A DNA stretch of 64,000 nt from an uncultured Brachyspira sp. (lineage in GTDB: Bacteria > Spirochaetota > JAAYUW01), in NCBI GenBank assembly GCA_964454835.1, contig CAYVTU010000009.1, forward strand, positions 8,817 through 72,816, in the 5' to 3' direction. The translations under genes and the position numbers were made by a program. The notes beneath the pieces were generated by a model. That model saw only the letters and a program-made list of their open reading frames with translations, ran no database searches and was not told where the DNA came from. Within the stretch, counting starts at the first letter, position 1. Each line of letters opens with the position of its first letter. Below are positions 53,664 through 62,624 of the stretch, in pieces.

Positions 53664-53694
53664 AAAAAAAGGGTGCCCTAAATTTAGGACACCC
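53664..53694 (-). terminator. Rho-independent terminator downstream of the flaA-like gene
   Basis: The minus-strand transcript reads GGGUGUCC-UAAAUUUA-GGGCACCC followed by UUUUUUU. This 8-bp GC-rich stem is unusual in this AT-rich sequence. Confidence 0.8.
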
Positions 53695-53711
53695 TTTTGT
53701 TTAAATATTAA

Positions 53712-54665
53712 TTATTTTTTAGGTTGATCTGATGAAGATTCTGTTGCCATCTTCTGTTGTTCTTCCCATCTTAAAAGTTGAATAATTCCAACTCTAGCAG
53801 CTTCTGCTCTTTTTTTAGCTTCTCTTCTATCTGAGAGAATGTGCCATACTGCTTCATCGTCAATTTCTTGTTCCATTTTAAGAATAGCAAGATCATATAT
53901 CATCTCAACTGATTTGATATAGATTAAGAAATCGCCACCAATTTGATCTCCGTGTCTATAAACGATAAAAGAATCGAGTTTGACATATGGTTCTTCAACA
54001 GGATATAAAGGATATTTCTTCAACATTCTTTTTCTTACATCTGCGATATAATTAGGATTATCGATCGTAATTGTGATAAAACCAGTGAAATCCAAGTAAC
54101 CGACGAAGAAATCGATTAATTCATCATTCTGGTTTTTTAATCTAACTGTAAGAGAATGTGGGAAATTTAATCCTCTAACTGTTACCATAAGGTTTTTAAT
54201 TGCACCAACATTTCTCAAAACACCTTTACCGATATACTTGTTACCGATAGTATCATTTGCATCTGCTGGTTCATATGATGGGATTTCATAAGGAGGTATA
54301 ATCTTTGCCCAGGAATTATACTTTTCTTTTGGGAAATGGATTCTAGCACCTAAAACAGTCTGCCCCGCATATTGACCTCTATCAACTTTAACTGTTTTTA
54401 CAAAAGATAATGAGATGTTTTCTATTGTTCTAGATGAAGGGGATAAAATAACTTCCCAGTTTTTAGGTTCCAAACTGATAAGCAAATTTTTCCTCTCTTC
54501 TTCTGTCTTTACAGATTGAAAAACATTAGGACCAGCAATTTTAACAATATCTAATTCTGTATTAGCTAAGTTGTTGAAATCAATAAGAACATTTCTTTCT
54601 GCAAGCACAGGAGTTGCAAAGAGGAAAATTAGGAATATTGCAAAAATTAAATTCCATCGTTTCAT
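53712..54665 (-). CDS. flaA: Flagellar filament outer-layer (sheath) protein FlaA-like
   Basis: Signal peptide (…PVLA/ER) and a pattern recalled from spirochete FlaA proteins (LIDF, NW.V.L, R.HFP, NVG.IK, PLYP, VKLDS, GGDF, IDDEAVW). A strong dedicated terminator suggests an abundant structural protein. Confidence 0.55.
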   Translation of the reverse strand: MKRWNLIFAIFLIFLFATPVLAERNVLIDFNNLANTELDIVKIAGPNVFQSVKTEEERKNLLISLEPKNWEVILSPSSRTIENISLSFVKTVKVDRGQYAGQTVLGARIHFPKEKYNSWAKIIPPYEIPSYEPADANDTIGNKYIGKGVLRNVGAIKNLMVTVRGLNFPHSLTVRLKNQNDELIDFFVGYLDFTGFITITIDNPNYIADVRKRMLKKYPLYPVEEPYVKLDSFIVYRHGDQIGGDFLIYIKSVEMIYDLAILKMEQEIDDEAVWHILSDRREAKKRAEAARVGIIQLLRWEEQQKMATESSSDQPKK

Positions 54666-54788: not shown

Positions 54789-55268
54789 CTATTTTTTATT
54801 TTTTAACTGAAAGGAATATGATTTAATTTTTCCAAATATAAAAAATTCCACTGATTCAACATTTTTAAATATTCTGGAATTTTTTATTGATAATAAAGTA
54901 GCCCTAGAAAGAATTTCTTTTATATTATCAGGATATTGCATAAAGATAGAACTAGATTCATTTGATAACATTATTTTACATGTTTTATTTTGATAATAAA
55001 CATTTTCTATTTCCAACATTTGAAAAAGATCTTTTTTAAATTTTTTAACATTAATTGGTCCAGAAAAATAATGCTTAATTAATTGTAAACCATCATATTT
55101 TTTAGGTAAAATTTGAGTTTCTGATTTAATTGATAAGTCTGATGTAATATAATAAAATTTAATTGTATTATAACCTATATATTTAATAAAGACAATCAGA
55201 AAAAATAACACTATTAAGCTTAATATAGAATAAAAGATAACCTTATTGTATTTTTTTAAATCCTTCAC
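54789..55268 (-). CDS. Membrane-anchored hypothetical protein (possibly GerMN-like, amidase-associated)
   Basis: One N-terminal TM segment. It is overlap-coupled to the upstream amidase gene. No clear motif. Confidence 0.25.
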   Translation of the reverse strand: MKDLKKYNKVIFYSILSLIVLFFLIVFIKYIGYNTIKFYYITSDLSIKSETQILPKKYDGLQLIKHYFSGPINVKKFKKDLFQMLEIENVYYQNKTCKIMLSNESSSIFMQYPDNIKEILSRATLLSIKNSRIFKNVESVEFFIFGKIKSYSFQLKNKK

Positions 55269-56565
55269 TTAATGTGTACTCCTTTATAAATAATTCTACA
55301 CCTTTACTTATAGCCGATGCTAATGAATCAAGGTAACTTTCAGAAGTCATTATTTTAACATCATTTGGATTTGTTATGTATCCTATTTCAATTAACATTG
55401 AAGGCATTTCTGAATAAGCAAGGACATAAAATGGAGCACCTTTTACAAATGATACTCCTATTTCCTTTACATTTTCTTTTATACTCTCAAAGCATAATTT
55501 TGCAAGTTTTGAAGACTCAAATATAAGTTGTTCATTTAACATTCTATTTATTATAGTATTCAATATTGAATCAGTTCCAGAATCTTTGTTTTCATATTTA
55601 ACTAAATCTTTAATTTTTTCATCTATAACATCATAATCTAAATAATAAACTTCAATTCCACTTTTTTTATTTGAATACGCATTAGCATTTGAATGCAAAG
55701 AAATAAAAATCCCTGTTTTTGTTTCAGAAAGATATTTATTTGATATCTTTACTCTATCTTCTAATGTCAATTTAGCATCTTTTTCTCTGGTCAAATAAAT
55801 TGAAAGATATGGAAATCTTGTGGTTAATACTTTTTTTAAATGTAAAGCAGCTTTTAAATTTATATCTTTTTCAAAGGTCTTATTTGCGACTGCACCAGGA
55901 TCATCGCCTCCATGACCTGCATCTATTATAATAAATGAGATTACCTTAAAATCAACCATCTTAGCTTGAGCATATGAATAAAATACTTCCATTTCTTTTT
56001 GTATTTGGGTTGATGAATCTACCTGTTCTTTATTTTTTTCATTATTCTTATCATCACTTTTTTTATCTTCTTCTTTTTTTTCTTCTTTTTCTTGTTGGTT
56101 TGGTTTTTCTTCTGTTTTATTGAATATTTCTTCTTTTTGCAAATTTTTTAAGTACTCTGAATACCAGAAATCATAAATTTGTTTGTTTTTAATGGGTATA
56201 AAAAAGATATTAAATAGAGAAAATACCAGCTTTTCTGGAATTATTATTTTTCCATTAATAATTACAATTTGCTTAGATAAATTCTCAACATAATATTTAT
56301 AAAGACACAAACCTGAATTATCGAATATTAATTGTTCTTTAGTTTGCAAATTTATGAAAATATAACAATCCTGTATATGGTCATATGATATTGATATTCC
56401 AAAATCATCTAAAAGAATTGATTGAAAGAATGTGACACTTGTAGAACCATAAATTTGATTAGAAATAAATAAAATAAAAAATAAAATTAAAAAGAAAAAA
56501 TAGAAAATAAAATTATGTACTTTTTTATTATTTTTTAATAGCATAAAGCTCACAAATATCTCCAA
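55243..56565 (-). CDS. N-acetylmuramoyl-L-alanine amidase (Amidase_3, AmiC-like)
   Basis: C-terminal catalytic domain with IIDAGHGGDDPGAV and …SLHSNA… motifs. The N-terminus has a TM segment and a KEE-rich low-complexity linker. Confidence 0.75.
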   Translation of the reverse strand: MEIFVSFMLLKNNKKVHNFIFYFFFLILFFILFISNQIYGSTSVTFFQSILLDDFGISISYDHIQDCYIFINLQTKEQLIFDNSGLCLYKYYVENLSKQIVIINGKIIIPEKLVFSLFNIFFIPIKNKQIYDFWYSEYLKNLQKEEIFNKTEEKPNQQEKEEKKEEDKKSDDKNNEKNKEQVDSSTQIQKEMEVFYSYAQAKMVDFKVISFIIIDAGHGGDDPGAVANKTFEKDINLKAALHLKKVLTTRFPYLSIYLTREKDAKLTLEDRVKISNKYLSETKTGIFISLHSNANAYSNKKSGIEVYYLDYDVIDEKIKDLVKYENKDSGTDSILNTIINRMLNEQLIFESSKLAKLCFESIKENVKEIGVSFVKGAPFYVLAYSEMPSMLIEIGYITNPNDVKIMTSESYLDSLASAISKGVELFIKEYTLSEGFKKIQ

Positions 56566-58348
56566 ATTTTATAGCATTGCTCAGGTTTTTAATAAATATT
56601 TTATTAAATATAGTTGAAATAAAAGGTAAAGCATTTTTAAATCTTTCATAGTGAAAGCTAGGGATTCTAACTCTATAAATATTAAAACCTTTTTTTATAA
56701 AATATTTTTTTAAGCTATAAGGATTAAAGTCATAAAAATGATCTTTTGGTCTTGTTTCAAAATAGGCTGTTCTATTTTTCTTGAAACAAAACATAGGACC
56801 AAATTGAGATGGAAAACTTAAACATAAAATTCCACCTTTTTTTAGTAAATTAAAAGCTCTATTTACTATATGATCAAAATCCTTTATATGTTCAAAGCAA
56901 AACCAAAAAGAAATAATATCAAACTCTTTTTGCTCAATATCATCAATTGATTTATATGAAAAATAACCTTTTTTCATACAAAATTCAAGGGCATACGTAT
57001 TACTTTCTACAATATAACCTTCCATTCTCTTTGATAAAAAAGATAATTTTTCTTTTAAATCATCAAGAAAAAATCCAAGGGCGCCACCAAAATCGATTGC
57101 ACTAATTTTTTGAGAAGTTGATTTCAACAAATGTGGAAGAATATAATTAATTCTATCATGATTAATTTTTTTTATATTTTCTCTATCTTCAAAGTAGGTC
57201 TTACCATATAAATTTTTATATTCATCGATATAGTATTTTTCTTTTTCATCCTCATTCATCTGTTCATAATCAAGATTTTCTTTAATTATTGTTTTACAGT
57301 ATGGACAGATAAGAAGATTAAATTTTTCATATAAATATAATGTTTTTATTGTTTTACTTTCACAGATTGGACATTTCTTAATAAAGTTTTCTTTGTTATC
57401 CTTAATATAATTTAATAAAGAAGTTAATTTTTCTTTTATTTCAAAAATATTTCCTAAATCACTTAAATTAAAAGAATTAAAATTATCATAGAAATAGTTA
57501 TCTTTTTCATAATTTATTTTTTTTATGCTTTGATCATTGGTATCATTTAATATAAGACTTAAAAACTTCTCTTTAACAATCTTTCCTTTTTTTGAAATAT
57601 GAAGATTTTTAAAATATTTATTTGATAGTTTTTCATGATAAGAAGTAGGAGAAAAAATAATAAGATTTTTATTCATCTTTAAAATTTCAAATACAAATAA
57701 TCCAAAATGAGTTATTATAGTATTAGATGCAGATACAAGAAATTTATATTTTTCATCACCTGCTCTTAAAATATCAAAATTTGAATAAATTGAATTCTCC
57801 TTGTTTTTAATAATATTATCATAGATTTTTTCCGGTAAAACAAATAATATTTTTTTTCCGGAAAATAATTGGTTGTTTTGATTTATAAAGTTAGCTATTT
57901 TTTTAGTGCAATTATAAGGATCTAGATTACCAAAGCTAATAAAAATATCATAATAAACTGAATTGCCATCATTGATTTGATTTTTATTTTCAAAATCATT
58001 TATAATAAGGTATTTTAAAGATTTTAAATTGCCAAAATCAACTAATGATGGAATTGAATTCCAGTAAAACCTATAACCTCTATATCTTTTTGGAAGATAA
58101 TAATCATCGAAATCTATGACCAATTTTGAACCGAAAAATATATCTGTTGTCTCGTTGCTATTTCTTGTATCTTTTATAATTAAATCATATTCTATTAAAT
58201 CAAGTTTTAAAATCTCTTTTATATTATTTATTTTTACTATTTCTGAGTTAAATCCTAATTCATTTAAAATTTTTTGTAATATTTTTTGTCGTACAAAATG
58301 CCCCGAGCCAAATTTATTACCAAATCCAGCTATTTGAAGTATTTTCAT
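56528..58348 (-). CDS. Fusion of a PseG/SpsG-like glycosyltransferase-fold domain with a zinc-ribbon class I SAM methyltransferase
   Basis: N-terminal MKILQIAGFGNKFGSGHFVRQ resembles the PseG/SpsG GxGHxxR start. The central region has a CPICES…CPYCK zinc ribbon. The C-terminal methyltransferase-like region reads AIDFGGALGFF…KKGGILCLSFP. Confidence 0.5.
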   Translation of the reverse strand: MKILQIAGFGNKFGSGHFVRQKILQKILNELGFNSEIVKINNIKEILKLDLIEYDLIIKDTRNSNETTDIFFGSKLVIDFDDYYLPKRYRGYRFYWNSIPSLVDFGNLKSLKYLIINDFENKNQINDGNSVYYDIFISFGNLDPYNCTKKIANFINQNNQLFSGKKILFVLPEKIYDNIIKNKENSIYSNFDILRAGDEKYKFLVSASNTIITHFGLFVFEILKMNKNLIIFSPTSYHEKLSNKYFKNLHISKKGKIVKEKFLSLILNDTNDQSIKKINYEKDNYFYDNFNSFNLSDLGNIFEIKEKLTSLLNYIKDNKENFIKKCPICESKTIKTLYLYEKFNLLICPYCKTIIKENLDYEQMNEDEKEKYYIDEYKNLYGKTYFEDRENIKKINHDRINYILPHLLKSTSQKISAIDFGGALGFFLDDLKEKLSFLSKRMEGYIVESNTYALEFCMKKGYFSYKSIDDIEQKEFDIISFWFCFEHIKDFDHIVNRAFNLLKKGGILCLSFPSQFGPMFCFKKNRTAYFETRPKDHFYDFNPYSLKKYFIKKGFNIYRVRIPSFHYERFKNALPFISTIFNKIFIKNLSNAIKFGDICELYAIKK

Positions 58349-58389: not shown

Positions 58390-59151
58390 TTATTCTTTAT
58401 AATTTTTTTGAATTTCATTTAAGTTAATCTCGAATTCTTTTTTATTTTCGTAATATAAATTTTTAATATCATCAATATCTATAAAATATAATGATTTATT
58501 TTTTTCATTAAAATGAGTAATAATATTTTTAACAACTAAATAATCTTTTTTTGTATCTATTGTTAATCTTAATTTTGAAATATCTTCATACCCAATAAAA
58601 GGTTTTTTTAAGATTAAAAATCTATCAGGATTTTCGTAAATATATGGAGTAACATGCTCAAAATGATATGATTTATTCGCATTATTAAAATTATTCCAGA
58701 AAGCTTCTTTTTTAATAATTTCAGTCTGGGTTCCTAAAGGTAAATTTTCTCTTATAAAATAATCTGGTAATTTTTCATTTTTATTTAAAATTTCATTTAA
58801 TATTTCAATATTTTCTTTTAATACAATCAATGAAGTAAAAGGGTTATCACAAGTTACTCTTATAAGATAATCTGATTCATATTTATAAAATGAATCCGCA
58901 AATCTACTCAACACATTTTCTTCACTGCCACTACTTAAATAAAAACAATCTATACAATATTTTTTAAAAATATCTTCTTCAGTTTTTGGAACAGCCAGAA
59001 TATTAAATTTTATTAAATTAGAAAGAGAAGATAATCTTTTTTGAAGAAATATGACTATTTCATCTTTCCCCAACTTTTTTAAAACTTTTTGAGGAAATCT
59101 TGTTGATTTTAGTCTTGCCTGTAAAATTAAGGTAAAATTTAGTTTATTCAT
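58390..59151 (-). CDS. SpsF/PseF-like cytidylyltransferase (CMP-sugar synthetase fold)
   Basis: N-terminus LILQARLKSTRFPQKVLKKLG matches the acylneuraminate cytidylyltransferase / SpsF family signature, 253 aa. Confidence 0.6.
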   Translation of the reverse strand: MNKLNFTLILQARLKSTRFPQKVLKKLGKDEIVIFLQKRLSSLSNLIKFNILAVPKTEEDIFKKYCIDCFYLSSGSEENVLSRFADSFYKYESDYLIRVTCDNPFTSLIVLKENIEILNEILNKNEKLPDYFIRENLPLGTQTEIIKKEAFWNNFNNANKSYHFEHVTPYIYENPDRFLILKKPFIGYEDISKLRLTIDTKKDYLVVKNIITHFNEKNKSLYFIDIDDIKNLYYENKKEFEINLNEIQKNYKE

Positions 59152-60728
59152 CAGAAAAAATAAGTATAGAATTCATTACAATCATTACATAAATTCAAAT
59201 GTTGATTATCACAGTGCTGTTTATAAAAATTCTTCATTGTATCAATAATTATATCTATATTATCATCTATATTAAGGTTAATAGTCTGACCATTATAATC
59301 TGAATAACATAAAGCGATTTTACCATCTGATAAAATAAATATTTCTCTTCTTAAATGGTAACATGGAAACCTTTTTACCGGTGTTAAATCAGCAACTTCA
59401 AGATTATCAAGTTTTTTAGAATATGAATTATATTTTCTAAATATTATATTTTTTTCATATTTTTGAAAATATGAATAAAATGATTCTATCTCATCATCAT
59501 TTTGAGGAATTCTCAAATATGATATAAAAACATTCTCAGGATATTTATCTAGTAAAGAAATTATTGTTTTATTAAGTAAAGGTAAAATCATCTTTTTACC
59601 TAGATTTTTATATGTATCTTCATTATATGCATCAATACTGACTACTAAAAAGATATTGTGAGAATTTTTAAACTGATTATAAAAATCAGGGGATAAAAAT
59701 GACCCATTAGTTTCAATATAAACTTTATTGTTTTCTGATAAAAATTCAATTATTTCGTTGAAATCTTTATGCATTAGTGGTTCACCAAAACCACCCACAA
59801 TAAATACAGAATCATTGAAAAAAATTCTATTTTTATTAATAAAATTAAATAAACTACTCTTGTTTATGAACTCAGAATCTCTTTTTAAACCTTTGGGATA
59901 TGGACAATGAATACATGAAAAATTACATTTGCTGGAAAGTTCAATAATATATGTTTTGGGAATAGTATATAAAATTTCTAATCGCGATATTTTACTTTCA
60001 ATCTCTTCCCATTCTATATTTTTAAACTGGTAAATATTAAAAAAATCAAGTGTAGAAATTGAATTAATTAATTCAACGTAATTTTCATTTTTAATATATT
60101 TTTCTTCCTTGAAAAATAATGCTATTAATGGTAAAGATGAAAAATCAGAAAGAGAAAGAGAAATTCTATACGGAAGATAGTAATCAAGACCTTCAATTAA
60201 ATCTATATCAAACATGCTGATATTTCTTAAAAGAATATCAAAAATCAGATTATGATGATAATAGTCTTTTTCATTTGATAATTTGATTAATTCTTCTAAA
60301 ATAGTATTTCGGAAAACTTCTCCTACAATTCCCTCTGGAAAATTTTCTCCATAATAATAATCTGTTAGATATTTTTCAGAATCTTCAATAATAAACTTGT
60401 TTTTTGAGATTGAAAATAAAGGATAAGATGCAGATAAAAGTAAAGTATAACTATTGTCAGATTGTATGTTTTCTTCAACAATTCTTTTATTATAGGACTC
60501 CAAAAAAGATTTTACTGATTTTGAATAATATATATAATTTGAAAAAGAGAAATTATCCTTTATTAAATCAAGATACTCTTGTTCTATTGCAAGATATACA
60601 TTTAAATCACAATCTTTTAAAAAGGAGTCAATTTTTTTTTGCAAGAATGAAAAATAATTTTTTAATTGTTTTTCCTTGTACAATTTAAATAGCGATTCTT
60701 CAAAAAAAAGTACTAGATTATTATTCAT
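59151..60728 (-). CDS. Radical SAM enzyme with C-terminal SPASM/twitch-like Cys cluster and ~255-aa N-terminal extension
   Basis: CNFSCIHC (Cx3Cx2C) near residue 260 and GGFGEPLMH follow a ~255-aa N-terminal region with no recognised motifs. The C-terminal Cys-rich region reads CYHLRRE…DGKIALCYSDYNG…CDNQHLNLCNDCNEFY. Confidence 0.7.
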   Translation of the reverse strand: MNNNLVLFFEESLFKLYKEKQLKNYFSFLQKKIDSFLKDCDLNVYLAIEQEYLDLIKDNFSFSNYIYYSKSVKSFLESYNKRIVEENIQSDNSYTLLLSASYPLFSISKNKFIIEDSEKYLTDYYYGENFPEGIVGEVFRNTILEELIKLSNEKDYYHHNLIFDILLRNISMFDIDLIEGLDYYLPYRISLSLSDFSSLPLIALFFKEEKYIKNENYVELINSISTLDFFNIYQFKNIEWEEIESKISRLEILYTIPKTYIIELSSKCNFSCIHCPYPKGLKRDSEFINKSSLFNFINKNRIFFNDSVFIVGGFGEPLMHKDFNEIIEFLSENNKVYIETNGSFLSPDFYNQFKNSHNIFLVVSIDAYNEDTYKNLGKKMILPLLNKTIISLLDKYPENVFISYLRIPQNDDEIESFYSYFQKYEKNIIFRKYNSYSKKLDNLEVADLTPVKRFPCYHLRREIFILSDGKIALCYSDYNGQTINLNIDDNIDIIIDTMKNFYKQHCDNQHLNLCNDCNEFYTYFF

Positions 60729-60746
60729 TAATTGACCTACGATTTA

Positions 60747-61442
60747 TCATTTTATCTTAAATGTAACTTCCTCTATATCATCAGAACCAAAAGAAAGAAC
60801 ATCCCCTTTAACAATAGGACCAACCCCTTCACATGTACCGGTAAGAATAATATCTCCTGGTATCAATGTAAAGTGCTGCGAAATAAAGGAAATAAGTTTT
60901 GGGATAGAAAAAATCATGAATGATGAATCAGATTTTTGGACTATATTACCATTTTTTTTAAGATAGAATGGTTTTTTCATAAGTTTTTCAATATTATCAA
61001 AAGGAAGAATTCTTGAAATAGGACAACTGGTATCAAACCCTTTAGAAATTAACCATGGTCCACCATTCTTTTTAGCTTCTGTTTGTAAATCCCTACATGT
61101 CAAATCAAGAGCAATACCATAACCACCTATGAAATTTTTCACTTCGTTTTCTGATATGTTTTTAACCTTTTTTGAAATATAGATAGCAATTTCTACTTCA
61201 TGGTGAACAAGCTGAGAAAATTCAGGATAAATTATATCATCACCTTCTTCTATAATTGAGGTAGGTGGTTTTGAAAAAATTAGGGGTTTGCCAATATTTA
61301 TCGAGTTTAATTCTTCTATATGTTTTACATAATTTTGTCCAACACAATAGATTGTTGATACGGGTAAAAGCCTACCATCTGAACCATGTATGCATTTTTT
61401 TAAGTAGTATTCAGGTAAAATTTCGAAAAAATCTTTACCCAT
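60747..61442 (-). CDS. Fumarylacetoacetate hydrolase (FAH)-family protein
   Basis: 231 aa with FAH-fold motifs (IYCVGQNYVKH, HHEVEIAI, GTCEGVG). Confidence 0.7.
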   Translation of the reverse strand: MGKDFFEILPEYYLKKCIHGSDGRLLPVSTIYCVGQNYVKHIEELNSINIGKPLIFSKPPTSIIEEGDDIIYPEFSQLVHHEVEIAIYISKKVKNISENEVKNFIGGYGIALDLTCRDLQTEAKKNGGPWLISKGFDTSCPISRILPFDNIEKLMKKPFYLKKNGNIVQKSDSSFMIFSIPKLISFISQHFTLIPGDIILTGTCEGVGPIVKGDVLSFGSDDIEEVTFKIK

Positions 61443-61490: not shown

Positions 61491-62624
61491 TTATATCAAT
61501 TTCAAAAATGCTCTTCTTCTTTTATGCTGTCTTGCATCAAAATATTTCCAATGTCCCTGGACTTTTTCGTTTACTTCCAGTTCAGGATTTGATTCAGCTG
61601 AGATAATACCTGATTCAATTGCTGATTTAGATAGCTCATTCATCATTAAAGCATCAACTCCTTTTCCCTGATACTCTGGAAGAACTGCGCCAAGAAGCAA
61701 GTCTAAATATTTTGGTTTTAAAAGAGCTGAAAGTAGATATATAAAACCAAATGGGAACAATTTTCCTTTCGCTTTTTGTAGCGCTCTATTTAATGATGGC
61801 ATTCCTATTACCATACCGACTATATTATCATTTTCGTTAAAAACAAGTTTAACAAATTTTGGAGATAGAAATGAAAAATAAGATTTAATATAATATTGAA
61901 TCTGTTTTTCTGTTAATTCAGTCACACCATACAAATTCTTATATGCTTTTTCTATAACTTCAAATACTTCTTTCCCATATTTTTTTACCATTAAATTCAT
62001 GCTTTTTATTTCTTTAGTATGTAGTTTAAATCTTTCCATGACAATTCTAGAAAGTTTTTCTGCTTTTTCTGGTATCTGTTTTGGTACTTTTATTTCAAAT
62101 TCCACCCAATCAGCATCTTTCTTAAGCCCAAGTCTTTCATAATGATCTACATAGTATGGGTAATTATATAAAGTAGCCATAGTGCCAAGTTCTTCAAATC
62201 CTTCTATTAAAAGTCCTTCATAATCAAGATCTGAAAAACCTAGAGGTCCATTTAAACCAACCATACCTTTTGATTTTGCCCAATTGGTGACTTGATCGAA
62301 TAATGTTTTAGAAACATCATAATCATCTATAAAATCAAACCAACCAAATCTTGCGTATTTATTTCCCCATTTTTTTATATAATTATGTTGTATTATTCCT
62401 GCTATTCTTCCAACCATTTTATTTCCTTTCCAAGCAGTATAATATATAGATTCGCACACTTCAAATGCAGGATTAATATCTTTTCGCAAAGTATTTAATT
62501 CATCAAGAAAAAGAGGTGGTATCCAATATTTGTTTCCTTTATAAAGGTCAAATTCAAATTGAATAAATTGTTTTAATTCTTTAATTGTTTTAACTTCTCT
62601 AATTTCGATCTTTTTTTCTTCCAT
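61491..62624 (-). CDS. GNAT-fold / FemAB-like acyltransferase family protein (uncharacterised)
   Basis: 377-aa two-lobed protein with a C-terminal GNAT-like segment (…GAVLPEYQGKGVDALMMNEL…). Assignment is tentative. Confidence 0.35.
   Translation of the reverse strand: MEEKKIEIREVKTIKELKQFIQFEFDLYKGNKYWIPPLFLDELNTLRKDINPAFEVCESIYYTAWKGNKMVGRIAGIIQHNYIKKWGNKYARFGWFDFIDDYDVSKTLFDQVTNWAKSKGMVGLNGPLGFSDLDYEGLLIEGFEELGTMATLYNYPYYVDHYERLGLKKDADWVEFEIKVPKQIPEKAEKLSRIVMERFKLHTKEIKSMNLMVKKYGKEVFEVIEKAYKNLYGVTELTEKQIQYYIKSYFSFLSPKFVKLVFNENDNIVGMVIGMPSLNRALQKAKGKLFPFGFIYLLSALLKPKYLDLLLGAVLPEYQGKGVDALMMNELSKSAIESGIISAESNPELEVNEKVQGHWKYFDARQHKRRRAFLKLI

Follow-up and report, generated by a model that had tools for sequence, protein, structure and literature searches.

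BtrN, the butirosin 2-deoxy-scyllo-inosamine dehydrogenase, is a Twitch radical-SAM dehydrogenase, the substrate of which is a small carbohydrate-like molecule (an aminocyclitol) and not a peptide (PMC9012708). As for the spirochete flagellum, Treponema denticola FlaB carries, where core and sheath meet, an O-glycan that is a nonulosonic acid with acyl and O-methyl groups (PMC13439194), and sheath binding is mediated by the FlaB1 glycans in Leptospira (PMC13144727). The flaA gene of T. denticola shares a transcript with four non-flagellar ORFs that precede it (PMC9481697). The NCBIfam collection holds a spirochete-restricted family, TIGR04321 or "spiro-SPASM protein", in which a long N-terminal region is combined with a radical-SAM domain and a Cys-rich C-terminus; no paper naming this family was found in our literature search. 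To our knowledge, neither the Pse nor the Leg pathway includes a radical-SAM step.

The window analysed here is the whole stretch of 64,000 nucleotides from an uncultured Brachyspira sp. It carries a spiro-SPASM gene, and the features of this gene and of its surroundings are as follows.

60747..61442, minus strand: FAH-family gene, upstream neighbour only (Pfam FAA_hydrolase, E 3e-51)
59151..60728 including the stop codon, minus strand: spiro-SPASM protein gene, 525 aa (ORF, ATG start, read from 60728 to 59151)
59958..60728, minus strand: N-terminal domain, aa 1-257, degenerate cytidylyltransferase-like (GT-A type) with a helical linker (by hhalign and Foldseek)
59409..59957, minus strand: radical-SAM core, aa 258-440 (Pfam PF04055 at residues 263-419, E 9.6e-14)
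59904..59927, minus strand: CX3CX2C motif (CNFSCIHC) with C268/C272/C275, residues 268-275 (from the sequence)
59154..59408, minus strand: Twitch-like auxiliary-cluster region, aa 441-525, with C456/C474 (CX12GX4C) and C514/C517 (CX2C) (by Cys conservation)
58390..59151, minus strand: SpsF-type cytidylyltransferase, 253 aa (Pfam CTP_transf_3, E 1.8e-21)
56528..58348, minus strand: 606-aa fusion of a PseG-like GT-B domain, a Cys4 zinc ribbon (~aa 326-352) and a SAM methyltransferase (by Pfam, NCBIfam and profile)
55243..56565, minus strand: N-acetylmuramoyl-L-alanine amidase (Amidase_3), same operon (Pfam E 5.9e-43)
54789..55268, minus strand: 159-aa hypothetical protein, at the GerMN (Germane) position of other spirochetes (by position)
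53712..54665, minus strand: flaA, flagellar filament sheath protein, last gene of the unit (Pfam FlaA, E 1.9e-56)
53667..53698, minus strand: intrinsic-terminator-like hairpin, 14-bp stem and T run, directly after flaA (terminator scan)

The 525-aa protein matched TIGR04321 from end to end (residues 5-525 against model positions 2-510 of 510) with 278.8 bits and an E value of 8.2e-83, above the curated cutoff of 250 bits. Therefore, the gene is not a chance ORF and, by this profile match, is a true member of the catalogued, spirochete-only and functionally uncharacterised spiro-SPASM family. About 406 cluster representatives of the family were obtained at E<=1e-30, and the named matches were all from Spirochaetota (Exilispira, Treponema, Spirochaetia and Spirochaetota MAGs); the window also carries the spirochete sheath gene flaA. 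Close relatives, at 50-67% identity, have kept the full length. When the homologue search was run with a mixed alignment, only the same 15 AT-rich relatives were recovered, and the distant ones were reached after the Exilispira-like sequences had been removed. Furthermore, a scan of the genome contigs returned close relatives only, apart from L007 and L008, two radical-SAM genes without relation to the family. The window protein has the spirochete restriction and the domain layout of TIGR04321, and no difference was seen at the family level; the window clade is set apart by a more degenerate N-domain and a shorter operon. The preliminary description of this DNA mentioned neither the catalogued family nor the linkage to flaA and the amidase. 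What is new here is the origin of the N-domain, the Twitch-type C-terminus, the kinship to BtrN and the phylum-wide operon; the family itself was already catalogued.

A radical-SAM enzyme with its CX3CX2C cluster about 260 residues into the protein had been proposed, and this was borne out by C268, C272 and C275 and by the PF04055 match. The CX3CX2C motif is conserved in 71 of the 74 family members, and the GGE-type motif of the window protein reads GGFGEP. The C-terminal Cys residues of the window protein are located at positions 456, 474, 506, 514 and 517; C456, C474, C514 and C517 are invariant in all 74 members, whereas C506 is not conserved. The C-terminus had earlier been called SPASM/twitch-like. 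The twitch-like part of this assignment holds, since just four C-terminal Cys are conserved in the family, and the SPASM part was dropped: the window protein reached 16.9 bits with Pfam SPASM (PF13186), below the gathering score of 21.5 bits, and the seven-Cys pattern of the canonical SPASM domain (PF13186/TIGR04085), CX9-15GX4C...CX2CX5CX3C...C for two auxiliary clusters, was not found in the family alignment. Judged from these Cys positions, the C-terminal region is of the Twitch type, with one auxiliary cluster, and is not a seven-Cys SPASM domain. The ligation of the cluster is deduced from the sequence because the AF2 model (pLDDT 93.5, pTM 0.91) carries no cofactors.

BtrN was the top fold match to the spiro-SPASM model (Foldseek E 1.9e-9, TMt 0.68), and it was also the top profile sequence match (4m7t, E 8.2e-17), with all other sequence matches at 5e-6 or weaker. 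It has the same four-Cys auxiliary pattern, C...GX4C...CX2C, and the GX4C and CX2C Cys of the family align with the BtrN segments VLPC and LCKNC. Nevertheless, BtrN is a single-domain protein of ~250 aa at ~15% identity, has no N-terminal nucleotidyltransferase-like domain, and is encoded in an aminoglycoside cluster, whereas the spiro-SPASM gene lies in a flaA-linked operon. The canonical SPASM maturases (anSME, PqqE, SuiB, CteB and MftC) share with the spiro-SPASM protein the radical-SAM core and a C-terminal Fe-S region that opens with CX9-15GX4C, but they are weak structural neighbours; the spiro-SPASM protein has neither their CX2CX5CX3C...C block nor an RRE or a precursor peptide.

Two other radical-SAM roles were considered and rejected. 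No B12-binding Pfam match, and hence no cobalamin-binding domain, was found in the 525-aa protein, and its N-domain is cytidylyltransferase-like, so that a class B (cobalamin-dependent) methylase was discarded. The C-methylation that the preliminary description had listed among the possible reactions is unsupported for this enzyme because such a domain is missing and the second gene downstream codes for a separate SAM methyltransferase. A viperin-like CTP dehydratase was rejected as well, since viperin matches the core only, without an auxiliary cluster, and the N-domain has no triphosphate loop.

The structural identification of the long N-terminal domain, which had been suggested earlier, was carried out with AF2, Foldseek and hhalign, and a cytidylyltransferase-like fold was found, not an RRE. 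The N-domain aligned with the adjacent cytidylyltransferase family in hhalign at 97.5% probability (E 7.1e-12, 213 columns), and its Foldseek matches were a Leptospira cytidylyltransferase (6oew; E 1e-6, TMt 0.63), IspD, TarI and GlmU. Moreover, the cytidylyltransferase of a distant locus (L009) matched the N-terminal part of TIGR04321 with an E value of 2.9e-5. The homology rests on hhalign because the direct BLASTP comparison with the neighbouring cytidylyltransferase is suggestive only (E 0.008) and Pfam gave no match for the N-domain, PF02348 (CTP_transf_3) being absent even at E<=10. On this profile comparison, the N-domain and the adjacent SpsF-type cytidylyltransferase are paralogues, the former in degenerate form, and the N-domain is no RRE for peptide binding. 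Fold and sequence both relate it to the SpsF/PseF-type enzymes (CTP_transf_3; 6oew); unlike them, it has no CTP-binding loop and no Pfam match. The loop, ARxxSxRxPxK, is missing from the family consensus and from the N-domain of the window protein, and the motifs of the sugar-binding half, YxxxGxPxGxxxE and RLxxD-type, are kept. Since the loop and the Pfam match are absent and the Asp residues of DxP(L/F)LD are Ser in the window protein, no transferase activity is predicted for the N-domain. Substitutions at polar positions that are otherwise conserved in the family are numerous in the N-domain of the window clade, including D101S, D106S, H117S, D169N, R185L and R254Y.

The ATG of the cytidylyltransferase gene overlaps the stop codon of the spiro-SPASM gene by 1 nt (TGATG). 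Gaps of 18 and 48 nt to the neighbours had been given for the spiro-SPASM gene; the former is indeed the distance to the FAH gene, whereas the latter separates the FAH gene from the next gene upstream. The cytidylyltransferase has 6oew as its sole PDB sequence relative (E 1.1e-17); it reached no NCBIfam equivalog cutoff, gave no PseF model match and showed weak KdsB-type matches only. For the 606-aa fusion, the E value with TIGR03590 (PseG) was 0.0013, and for its L009 orthologue it was 1.1e-7. The PseG-like profile spans the length of Campylobacter jejuni PseG (3hbm), and the motif GxGH17xxR (GxGHxxR type) is conserved; the PseG-like matches, with E 1e-4 to 1e-7, are of modest strength and only slightly ahead of a GT28 glycosyltransferase. 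The methyltransferase part matched Methyltransf_23 (E 5e-11), and the TDP-sugar C-methyltransferase TcaB9 is among its relatives (E 2.6e-9). A single-sequence AF2 model of the fusion was discarded (pLDDT 37). The operon partners thus resemble PseF (cytidylyltransferase) and PseG (GT-B hydrolase, GxGHxxR) of the Pse pathway but stay below the PseF and PseG equivalog cutoffs. The 159-aa protein had no Pfam match and resembles the protein at the same position in L014 (E 9e-13). No further terminator-like site was found on the minus strand between 60728 and 53712, and the promoter scan returned 91 sites against 96 expected at 25% GC. No NulO synthase, aminotransferase or dehydratase genes were found in the window or beside the operon.

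The gene order, with its overlapping stop and start codons, recurs at five distant loci (L009, L010, L011, L015 and L016; 23-28% identity, GC 37-52%) and at L014. There, in the distant spirochetes, spiro-SPASM is the first gene of a tightly packed operon and is followed by a ~320-aa protein, the cytidylyltransferase, the PseG-like/Zn-ribbon/methyltransferase protein, an L-amino-acid-ligase-like ATP-grasp protein, the amidase, GerMN and FlaA. Cytidylyltransferase orthologues occupy the same position in all distant loci (in L011 fused to the PseG/MTase protein), the amidase position is kept in all loci compared, the Germane domain protein is present in L009, L010, L011, L015 and L016, and flaA is the last gene in all syntenic loci. 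The conserved ~320-aa protein was without match in Pfam, NCBIfam and the PDB sequences; its resemblance to GT-A is a visual impression, and no fold is claimed for it. Upstream of spiro-SPASM, the gene varies at the distant loci (XseA/B, STAS, ProB or GH31). Of the two neighbours on which the preliminary description had relied, the cytidylyltransferase is conserved across the phylum together with the PseG-like/methyltransferase gene, whereas the FAH gene is lineage-specific, is not conserved at distant loci and was rejected as a pathway partner. Going by published ORF annotations, the minimal genome of T. pallidum apparently keeps the module (TP0284-0289). The window clade operon lacks the ~320-aa gene and the ATP-grasp gene, and CX3CX2C is lost while the four Twitch Cys are kept in its sister clade (P0012 and P0013) and in P0014. 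Because polar residues of the N-domain are replaced, two genes are missing and the sister clade lacks CX3CX2C, the role of spiro-SPASM may be reduced or altered in the window lineage.

The statement that no small co-oriented ORF lies near the gene was confirmed: no free-standing small ORF was found beside it in the window, and none of the small ORFs within 2.5 kb was conserved across 10 homologous loci. The upstream gap is 14-83 nt in 6 of 7 loci, and the downstream genes overlap. No Pfam RRE/PqqD match was detected in the 525-aa protein. The proposed search of homologous neighbourhoods likewise ended with a conserved cytidylyltransferase and no conserved precursor ORF. Spiro-SPASM is a further SPASM/Twitch enzyme that is unsuitable as a RiPP marker in genome mining.

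Since a dead copy of a sugar-activating enzyme is joined to a BtrN-like domain and encoded in a conserved operon of sugar-activating genes, it is most likely a sugar, rather than a peptide, that spiro-SPASM modifies. The preliminary description had likewise preferred a small molecule (sugar) to a peptide. This preference passed the computational tests (N-domain, lack of a precursor, neighbours and BtrN), and we infer the exact substrate, as we do the substrate class, the oxidation chemistry and the link to a flagellin glycan. We are moderately inclined to regard the protein as a two-domain cytoplasmic radical oxidoreductase of a spirochete glycan pathway, in which it would tailor a sugar; this may be a nonulosonic acid, free or CMP-activated. 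Domain 1 (aa ~1-205, followed by the helical linker to ~257) would be the dead cytidylyltransferase paralogue, with the sugar-binding half kept and the CTP-binding loop lost; it may act as a recognition module for the sugar of the cytidylyltransferase or for its CMP-activated product, and it may pair with the true cytidylyltransferase. In the BtrN-like domain 2, the CX3CX2C cluster would cleave SAM, and the auxiliary [4Fe-4S] cluster would be fully Cys-ligated by C456, C474, C514 and C517. If the enzyme works as BtrN does, H would be taken from a carbinol carbon of the sugar by the 5'-deoxyadenosyl radical and the electron by the auxiliary cluster, so that a keto-sugar would be formed in a two-electron oxidation. 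Partners such as the downstream methyltransferase could next act on the keto-sugar by epimerisation, amination, deoxygenation or methylation. The operon product would most likely be a tailored nonulosonic-acid-type glycan, and it may be the FlaB flagellin O-glycan that contacts the FlaA sheath.

Two readings retain a polypeptide substrate. SkfB, SuiB and CteB were among the Foldseek matches (E 4e-8 to 2e-7), and weak partial matches to several NCBIfam peptide-maturase models were obtained, as might be expected of a RiPP maturase that crosslinks or otherwise modifies a small ribosomal precursor peptide recognised by the N-domain. This reading is scarcely credible against the tight gene packing and the lack of a small ORF beside the gene or conserved over the 10 loci, an N-domain that is cytidylyltransferase-like and not an RRE, a Cys set for one auxiliary cluster only, and conserved partners that are sugar-nucleotide enzymes. 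The strict operon linkage of flaA and the amidase, together with the occurrence of anSME among the structural and sequence matches, would also suit an anSME-like modification of a residue of FlaA, FlaB or the co-encoded amidase before export. We regard this as very unlikely: BtrN is far ahead of anSME (E 8e-17 vs 1e-5), anSME carries a second auxiliary cluster, the enzyme is cytoplasmic whereas FlaA and the amidase are exported through Sec, and the pseudo-cytidylyltransferase domain with a translationally coupled true cytidylyltransferase points to a sugar or nucleotide ligand.

The envelope is a possible target because the operon also encodes a peptidoglycan amidase. The substrate would then be another cytidine-nucleotide-activated precursor, namely a CDP-polyol, a Kdo-like sugar (LPS/glycolipid) or a peptidoglycan-linked polymer, and the amidase, GerMN and ATP-grasp would be true partners. 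The fold matches of the N-domain to the CDP-polyol synthases IspD and TarI, the KdsB-type best NCBIfam matches of the adjacent cytidylyltransferase, the operon content of Amidase_3, GerMN and L-amino-acid-ligase-like ATP-grasp, and lpxA, lpxC and lpxD, which are also present in the window, are consistent with such a precursor. However, the PseG-like domain with its conserved catalytic-type His motif points to a pseudaminic-type pathway, flaA is invariably the last gene, and the O-methyl, N-acyl NulO of T. denticola flagellin fits the methyltransferase and ATP-grasp content of the operon (PMC13439194); we therefore consider this alternative doubtful, with a modest chance of being correct. As to the window lineage itself, the protein might be a largely non-catalytic scaffold or regulator, a relic that binds the cytidylyltransferase or a pathway intermediate. 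The many substituted N-domain residues, the two lost operon genes and the relatives P0012, P0013 and P0014 with Twitch Cys yet no CX3CX2C are in line with this idea, but it appears unlikely for a protein with CX3CX2C, GGFGEP and the full set of four auxiliary Cys, with translational coupling to the cytidylyltransferase, and with relatives at 50-67% identity that are still full length.

The sugar oxidoreductase reading may be extended, tentatively and with less than even odds of being right, to the whole phylum. The spiro-SPASM proteins would then be radical-SAM sugar oxidoreductases in which the pseudo-cytidylyltransferase captures a nonulosonic acid or CMP-nonulosonate, maybe heterodimerising with the true enzyme, and hands the sugar to the BtrN-like site; this would be an undescribed O2-independent step in the synthesis of the O-glycan with which FlaB retains the FlaA sheath on the periplasmic flagella. 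Such a role would account for flaA as the last gene of the operon and for the apparent retention of the module even in the minimal genome of T. pallidum. The spiro-SPASM family is conserved across spirochetes, apparently including, according to published ORF annotations, the reduced genome of the syphilis agent. The dead cytidylyltransferase copy, the BtrN-like half and the operon that ends in flaA lead to the testable hypothesis of a radical-SAM step in spirochete glycan biosynthesis, the possible target of which is a flagellin glycan needed for flagellar assembly and motility, a virulence trait.

The gene under study was located in a stretch of approximately 25% GC:
Window 60728 to 59151, minus strand: spiro-SPASM ORF of 525 aa with an ATG start.

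Against the NCBIfam model TIGR04321 ("spiro-SPASM protein"), the encoded protein gave a full-length match that scored 278.8 bits (cutoff 250). The same protein (100%) was found on metagenome contigs, e.g. JGI 3300022663 (171.5-kb contig), and the closest relatives bearing a name were from Exilispira sp. MAGs. When 1.84 billion cluster representatives were searched with the family profile, approximately 406 were recovered at E<=1e-30, almost all of them 470-560 aa long, and all the named matches were spiro-SPASM or radical-SAM proteins of Treponema, Spirochaetia or Spirochaetota. Neither the family name nor the accession TIGR04321 was found in any paper in the literature search. The gene thus genuinely belongs to a spirochete family that is already catalogued, if uncharacterised, and adds a member to a known kind. 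Apart from the loci described below, the genes of the window were housekeeping ones (clpB, recA, dapB, panBC, rpsA, gatB, tgt, alr, mutS2, and ftsY), and no tRNA gene was found in the window.

The CX3CX2C motif placed about 260 residues into the protein by the preliminary description was confirmed as CNFSCIHC at residues 268-275, within a Pfam Radical_SAM match (residues 263-419, E 9.6e-14), and was present in 71 of the 74 aligned family sequences. The SPASM/twitch-like region described at the C terminus held only as Twitch. The Pfam SPASM match was below threshold (16.9 vs 21.5 bits) and, among the other cysteines (456, 474, 506, 514, and 517), the 74-sequence alignment left four invariant, C456 and C474 (CX12GX4C) and C514 and C517 (CX2C), with C506 unconserved. 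As judged from sequence, these cysteines are arranged as in a Twitch domain with a predicted single auxiliary cluster of all-Cys ligation, and not as in the seven-Cys SPASM motif. The AF2 model built from this alignment was confident (pLDDT 93.5, pTM 0.91), and its top PDB match was BtrN (4m7t, E 1.9e-9, TMt 0.68), followed by SkfB, SuiB, BlsE, viperins, MoaA, SpeY, and anSME. In the family-profile search of PDB sequences, BtrN was again far first (E 8e-17; others 5e-6 or weaker). [quoted passage not shown]

Three family proteins, P0012 (L014:10001-11653), P0013, and P0014 (L012:8495-9928), have lost CX3CX2C, replaced by YLL, YLL, and TC-, respectively, and retain the N-terminal domain and all four Twitch cysteines; they may represent a pseudoenzyme lineage. 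The P0012 locus keeps the ~320-aa gene described below, cytidylyltransferase, methyltransferase fusion, amidase, and FlaA; at the locus of P0014, which likewise lacks the motif, synteny was lost.

The N-terminal region (aa 1-257) gave no match in the Pfam search. However, this domain of the model resembled the Leptospira cytidylyltransferase 6oew (E 1e-6, TMt 0.63) and also matched IspD, TarI, and GlmU. 6oew was likewise the sole PDB sequence relative (E 1.1e-17) of the CTP_transf_3 protein encoded immediately downstream. When the N-domain profile (n=74) was compared by hhalign with that of the adjacent cytidylyltransferase (n=9), they matched over 213 columns with 97.5% probability (E 7e-12). 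Moreover, the cytidylyltransferase of a distant locus, L009, matched the TIGR04321 model in its N-terminal part (E 2.9e-5). In the alignment, the QARxxSxRxPxK loop of the cytidylyltransferase had no counterpart in the N-domain, and the YxxxGxPxGxxxE and RLxxD-type segments were kept. Given the fold and profile matches and the missing loop, the N-domain is a pseudo-cytidylyltransferase, and not the RRE-like peptide-binding domain that would have spoken against a sugar substrate.

On the minus strand, the gene order was pheT, a GNAT-like gene, FAH, spiro-SPASM, cytidylyltransferase, the 606-aa fusion, Amidase_3, a 159-aa protein, and FlaA, with these features:
Window 56528-58348, minus strand: 606-aa three-part fusion of a PseG-like GT-B domain, a Cys4 zinc ribbon, and a methyltransferase.
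Window 53667-53698, minus strand: strong intrinsic-terminator-like hairpin with a 14-bp stem, directly 3' of flaA.

The hairpin marks the operon 3' end, and the operon starts at or upstream of spiro-SPASM. Of the two gaps described earlier, the 18 nt after FAH was correct; the 48 nt was wrong for the cytidylyltransferase junction, because the ATG of that gene overlaps the spiro-SPASM stop codon (TGATG). The GNAT-like gene between pheT and FAH (window 61491-62624, minus strand) encodes a protein of 377 aa whose sole recognisable feature was a weak GNAT signature (E 3e-4); the NCBIfam search gave no match, and the gene holds the same position in close relatives.

In all five distant loci (L009, L010, L011, L015, and L016; 23-28% identity, GC 37-52%), the order was spiro-SPASM, a ~320-aa unannotated protein, CTP_transf_3, a ~600-aa methyltransferase fusion, an ATP-grasp ligase, Amidase_3, a Germane-domain protein, and FlaA, mostly with overlapping junctions. 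The cytidylyltransferase is thus a conserved neighbour. The gene upstream differed among these loci (XseA/B, STAS, ProB or GH31), which places FAH, also proposed as a neighbour, outside the conserved unit and led to its rejection as a pathway partner. The ~320-aa gene directly followed spiro-SPASM in six loci:
L009:11481-12449, ~320-aa protein.
L010:11484-12443, ~320-aa protein.
L011:11568-12557, ~320-aa protein.
L015:11532-12497, ~320-aa protein.
L016:11574-12539, ~320-aa protein.
L014:11628-12656, ~320-aa protein.

It overlapped the spiro-SPASM 3' end by exactly 26 nt in five of the six, and its product had no match in Pfam, NCBIfam, and PDB-sequence searches. Both this gene and ATP-grasp were absent throughout the 64-kb window. 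This absence coincides with substitutions in the window clade of otherwise family-conserved N-domain residues (101-254): D101S, D106S, H117S, D169N, N171S, D183Y, R185L, and R254Y. A degenerate scaffold is a rival explanation that bears on these changes; the window protein itself keeps CX3CX2C and the Twitch cysteines.

The N-terminal half of the fusion was PseG-like: TIGR03590 matched the L009 orthologue (E 1.1e-7), and the fusion profile matched Campylobacter jejuni PseG (3hbm) along its length; a GxGHxxR motif was conserved (invariant GxGH17xxR). GT28 glycosyltransferase scored only slightly below PseG. The zinc-ribbon cysteines include C326, C329, and C348. Among the solved relatives of the Methyltransf_23 domain are TcaB9 and KijD1, TDP-sugar C-methyltransferases that require a keto-sugar substrate.

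Improbable rival readings are a RiPP maturase and a protein modifier. As the preliminary description had it, the gene has no free-standing small ORF next to it in the window. Furthermore, an all-against-all comparison of every ORF of 15-110 aa located up to 2.5 kb from the gene, across 10 loci, yielded no precursor candidate; the cross-lineage matches were all inside large conserved genes or xseB. Together with the pseudo-cytidylyltransferase N-domain, these results point away from a peptide. Another rival is an enzyme acting on a different envelope precursor; a lipid A pathway in this Exilispira-like spirochete is shown by one cluster:
Window 12146-18619, plus strand: bamA, lpxD, lpxA, and lpxC.

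We are highly confident of the domain architecture, and a small-molecule sugar is the probable substrate. The earlier suggestion of a sugar is thus supported as to direction, with family identity, Twitch, the FAH neighbour, and one gap corrected. We propose that the pseudo-cytidylyltransferase domain would bind the sugar or CMP-sugar handled by the adjacent true cytidylyltransferase, that the BtrN-like domain would remove a carbinol hydrogen from it, that this position would be oxidised to a ketone via the auxiliary cluster, and that partner enzymes might then process the product further.

TP0288 of T. pallidum is annotated spsF. In that genome, TP0284/0285, TP0286/0287, and TP0288/0289 each form a single gene once joined correctly (PMC3265458), and TPASS_0285 and TPASS_0289 are annotated as SPASM and methyltransferase, respectively (PMC4403809). 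The joining of TP0288 and TP0289 agrees with the Treponema-type locus, in which a single 813-aa ORF (L011:12554-14995) joins the cytidylyltransferase and the PseG-like/methyltransferase protein. In T. denticola, flaA (TDE1712) is part of a cluster of 11 ORFs and shares a transcript with four non-flagellar ORFs upstream of it (PMC9481697), and FlaB carries an O-linked 2-methoxy-4,5,6-trihydroxy-hexanoyl nonulosonic acid (NulO) at the core-sheath interface (PMC13439194); in Leptospira, sheath binding is mediated by FlaB1 glycans (PMC13144727). An O-methylated, N-acylated NulO would fit the cytidylyltransferase, PseG-like, methyltransferase, and ATP-grasp content of the operon, although assignment to flagellin NulO is tentative and rather doubtful. 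From the published annotations, the TP0284-0289 region appears to be the spiro-SPASM module kept in a minimal genome.
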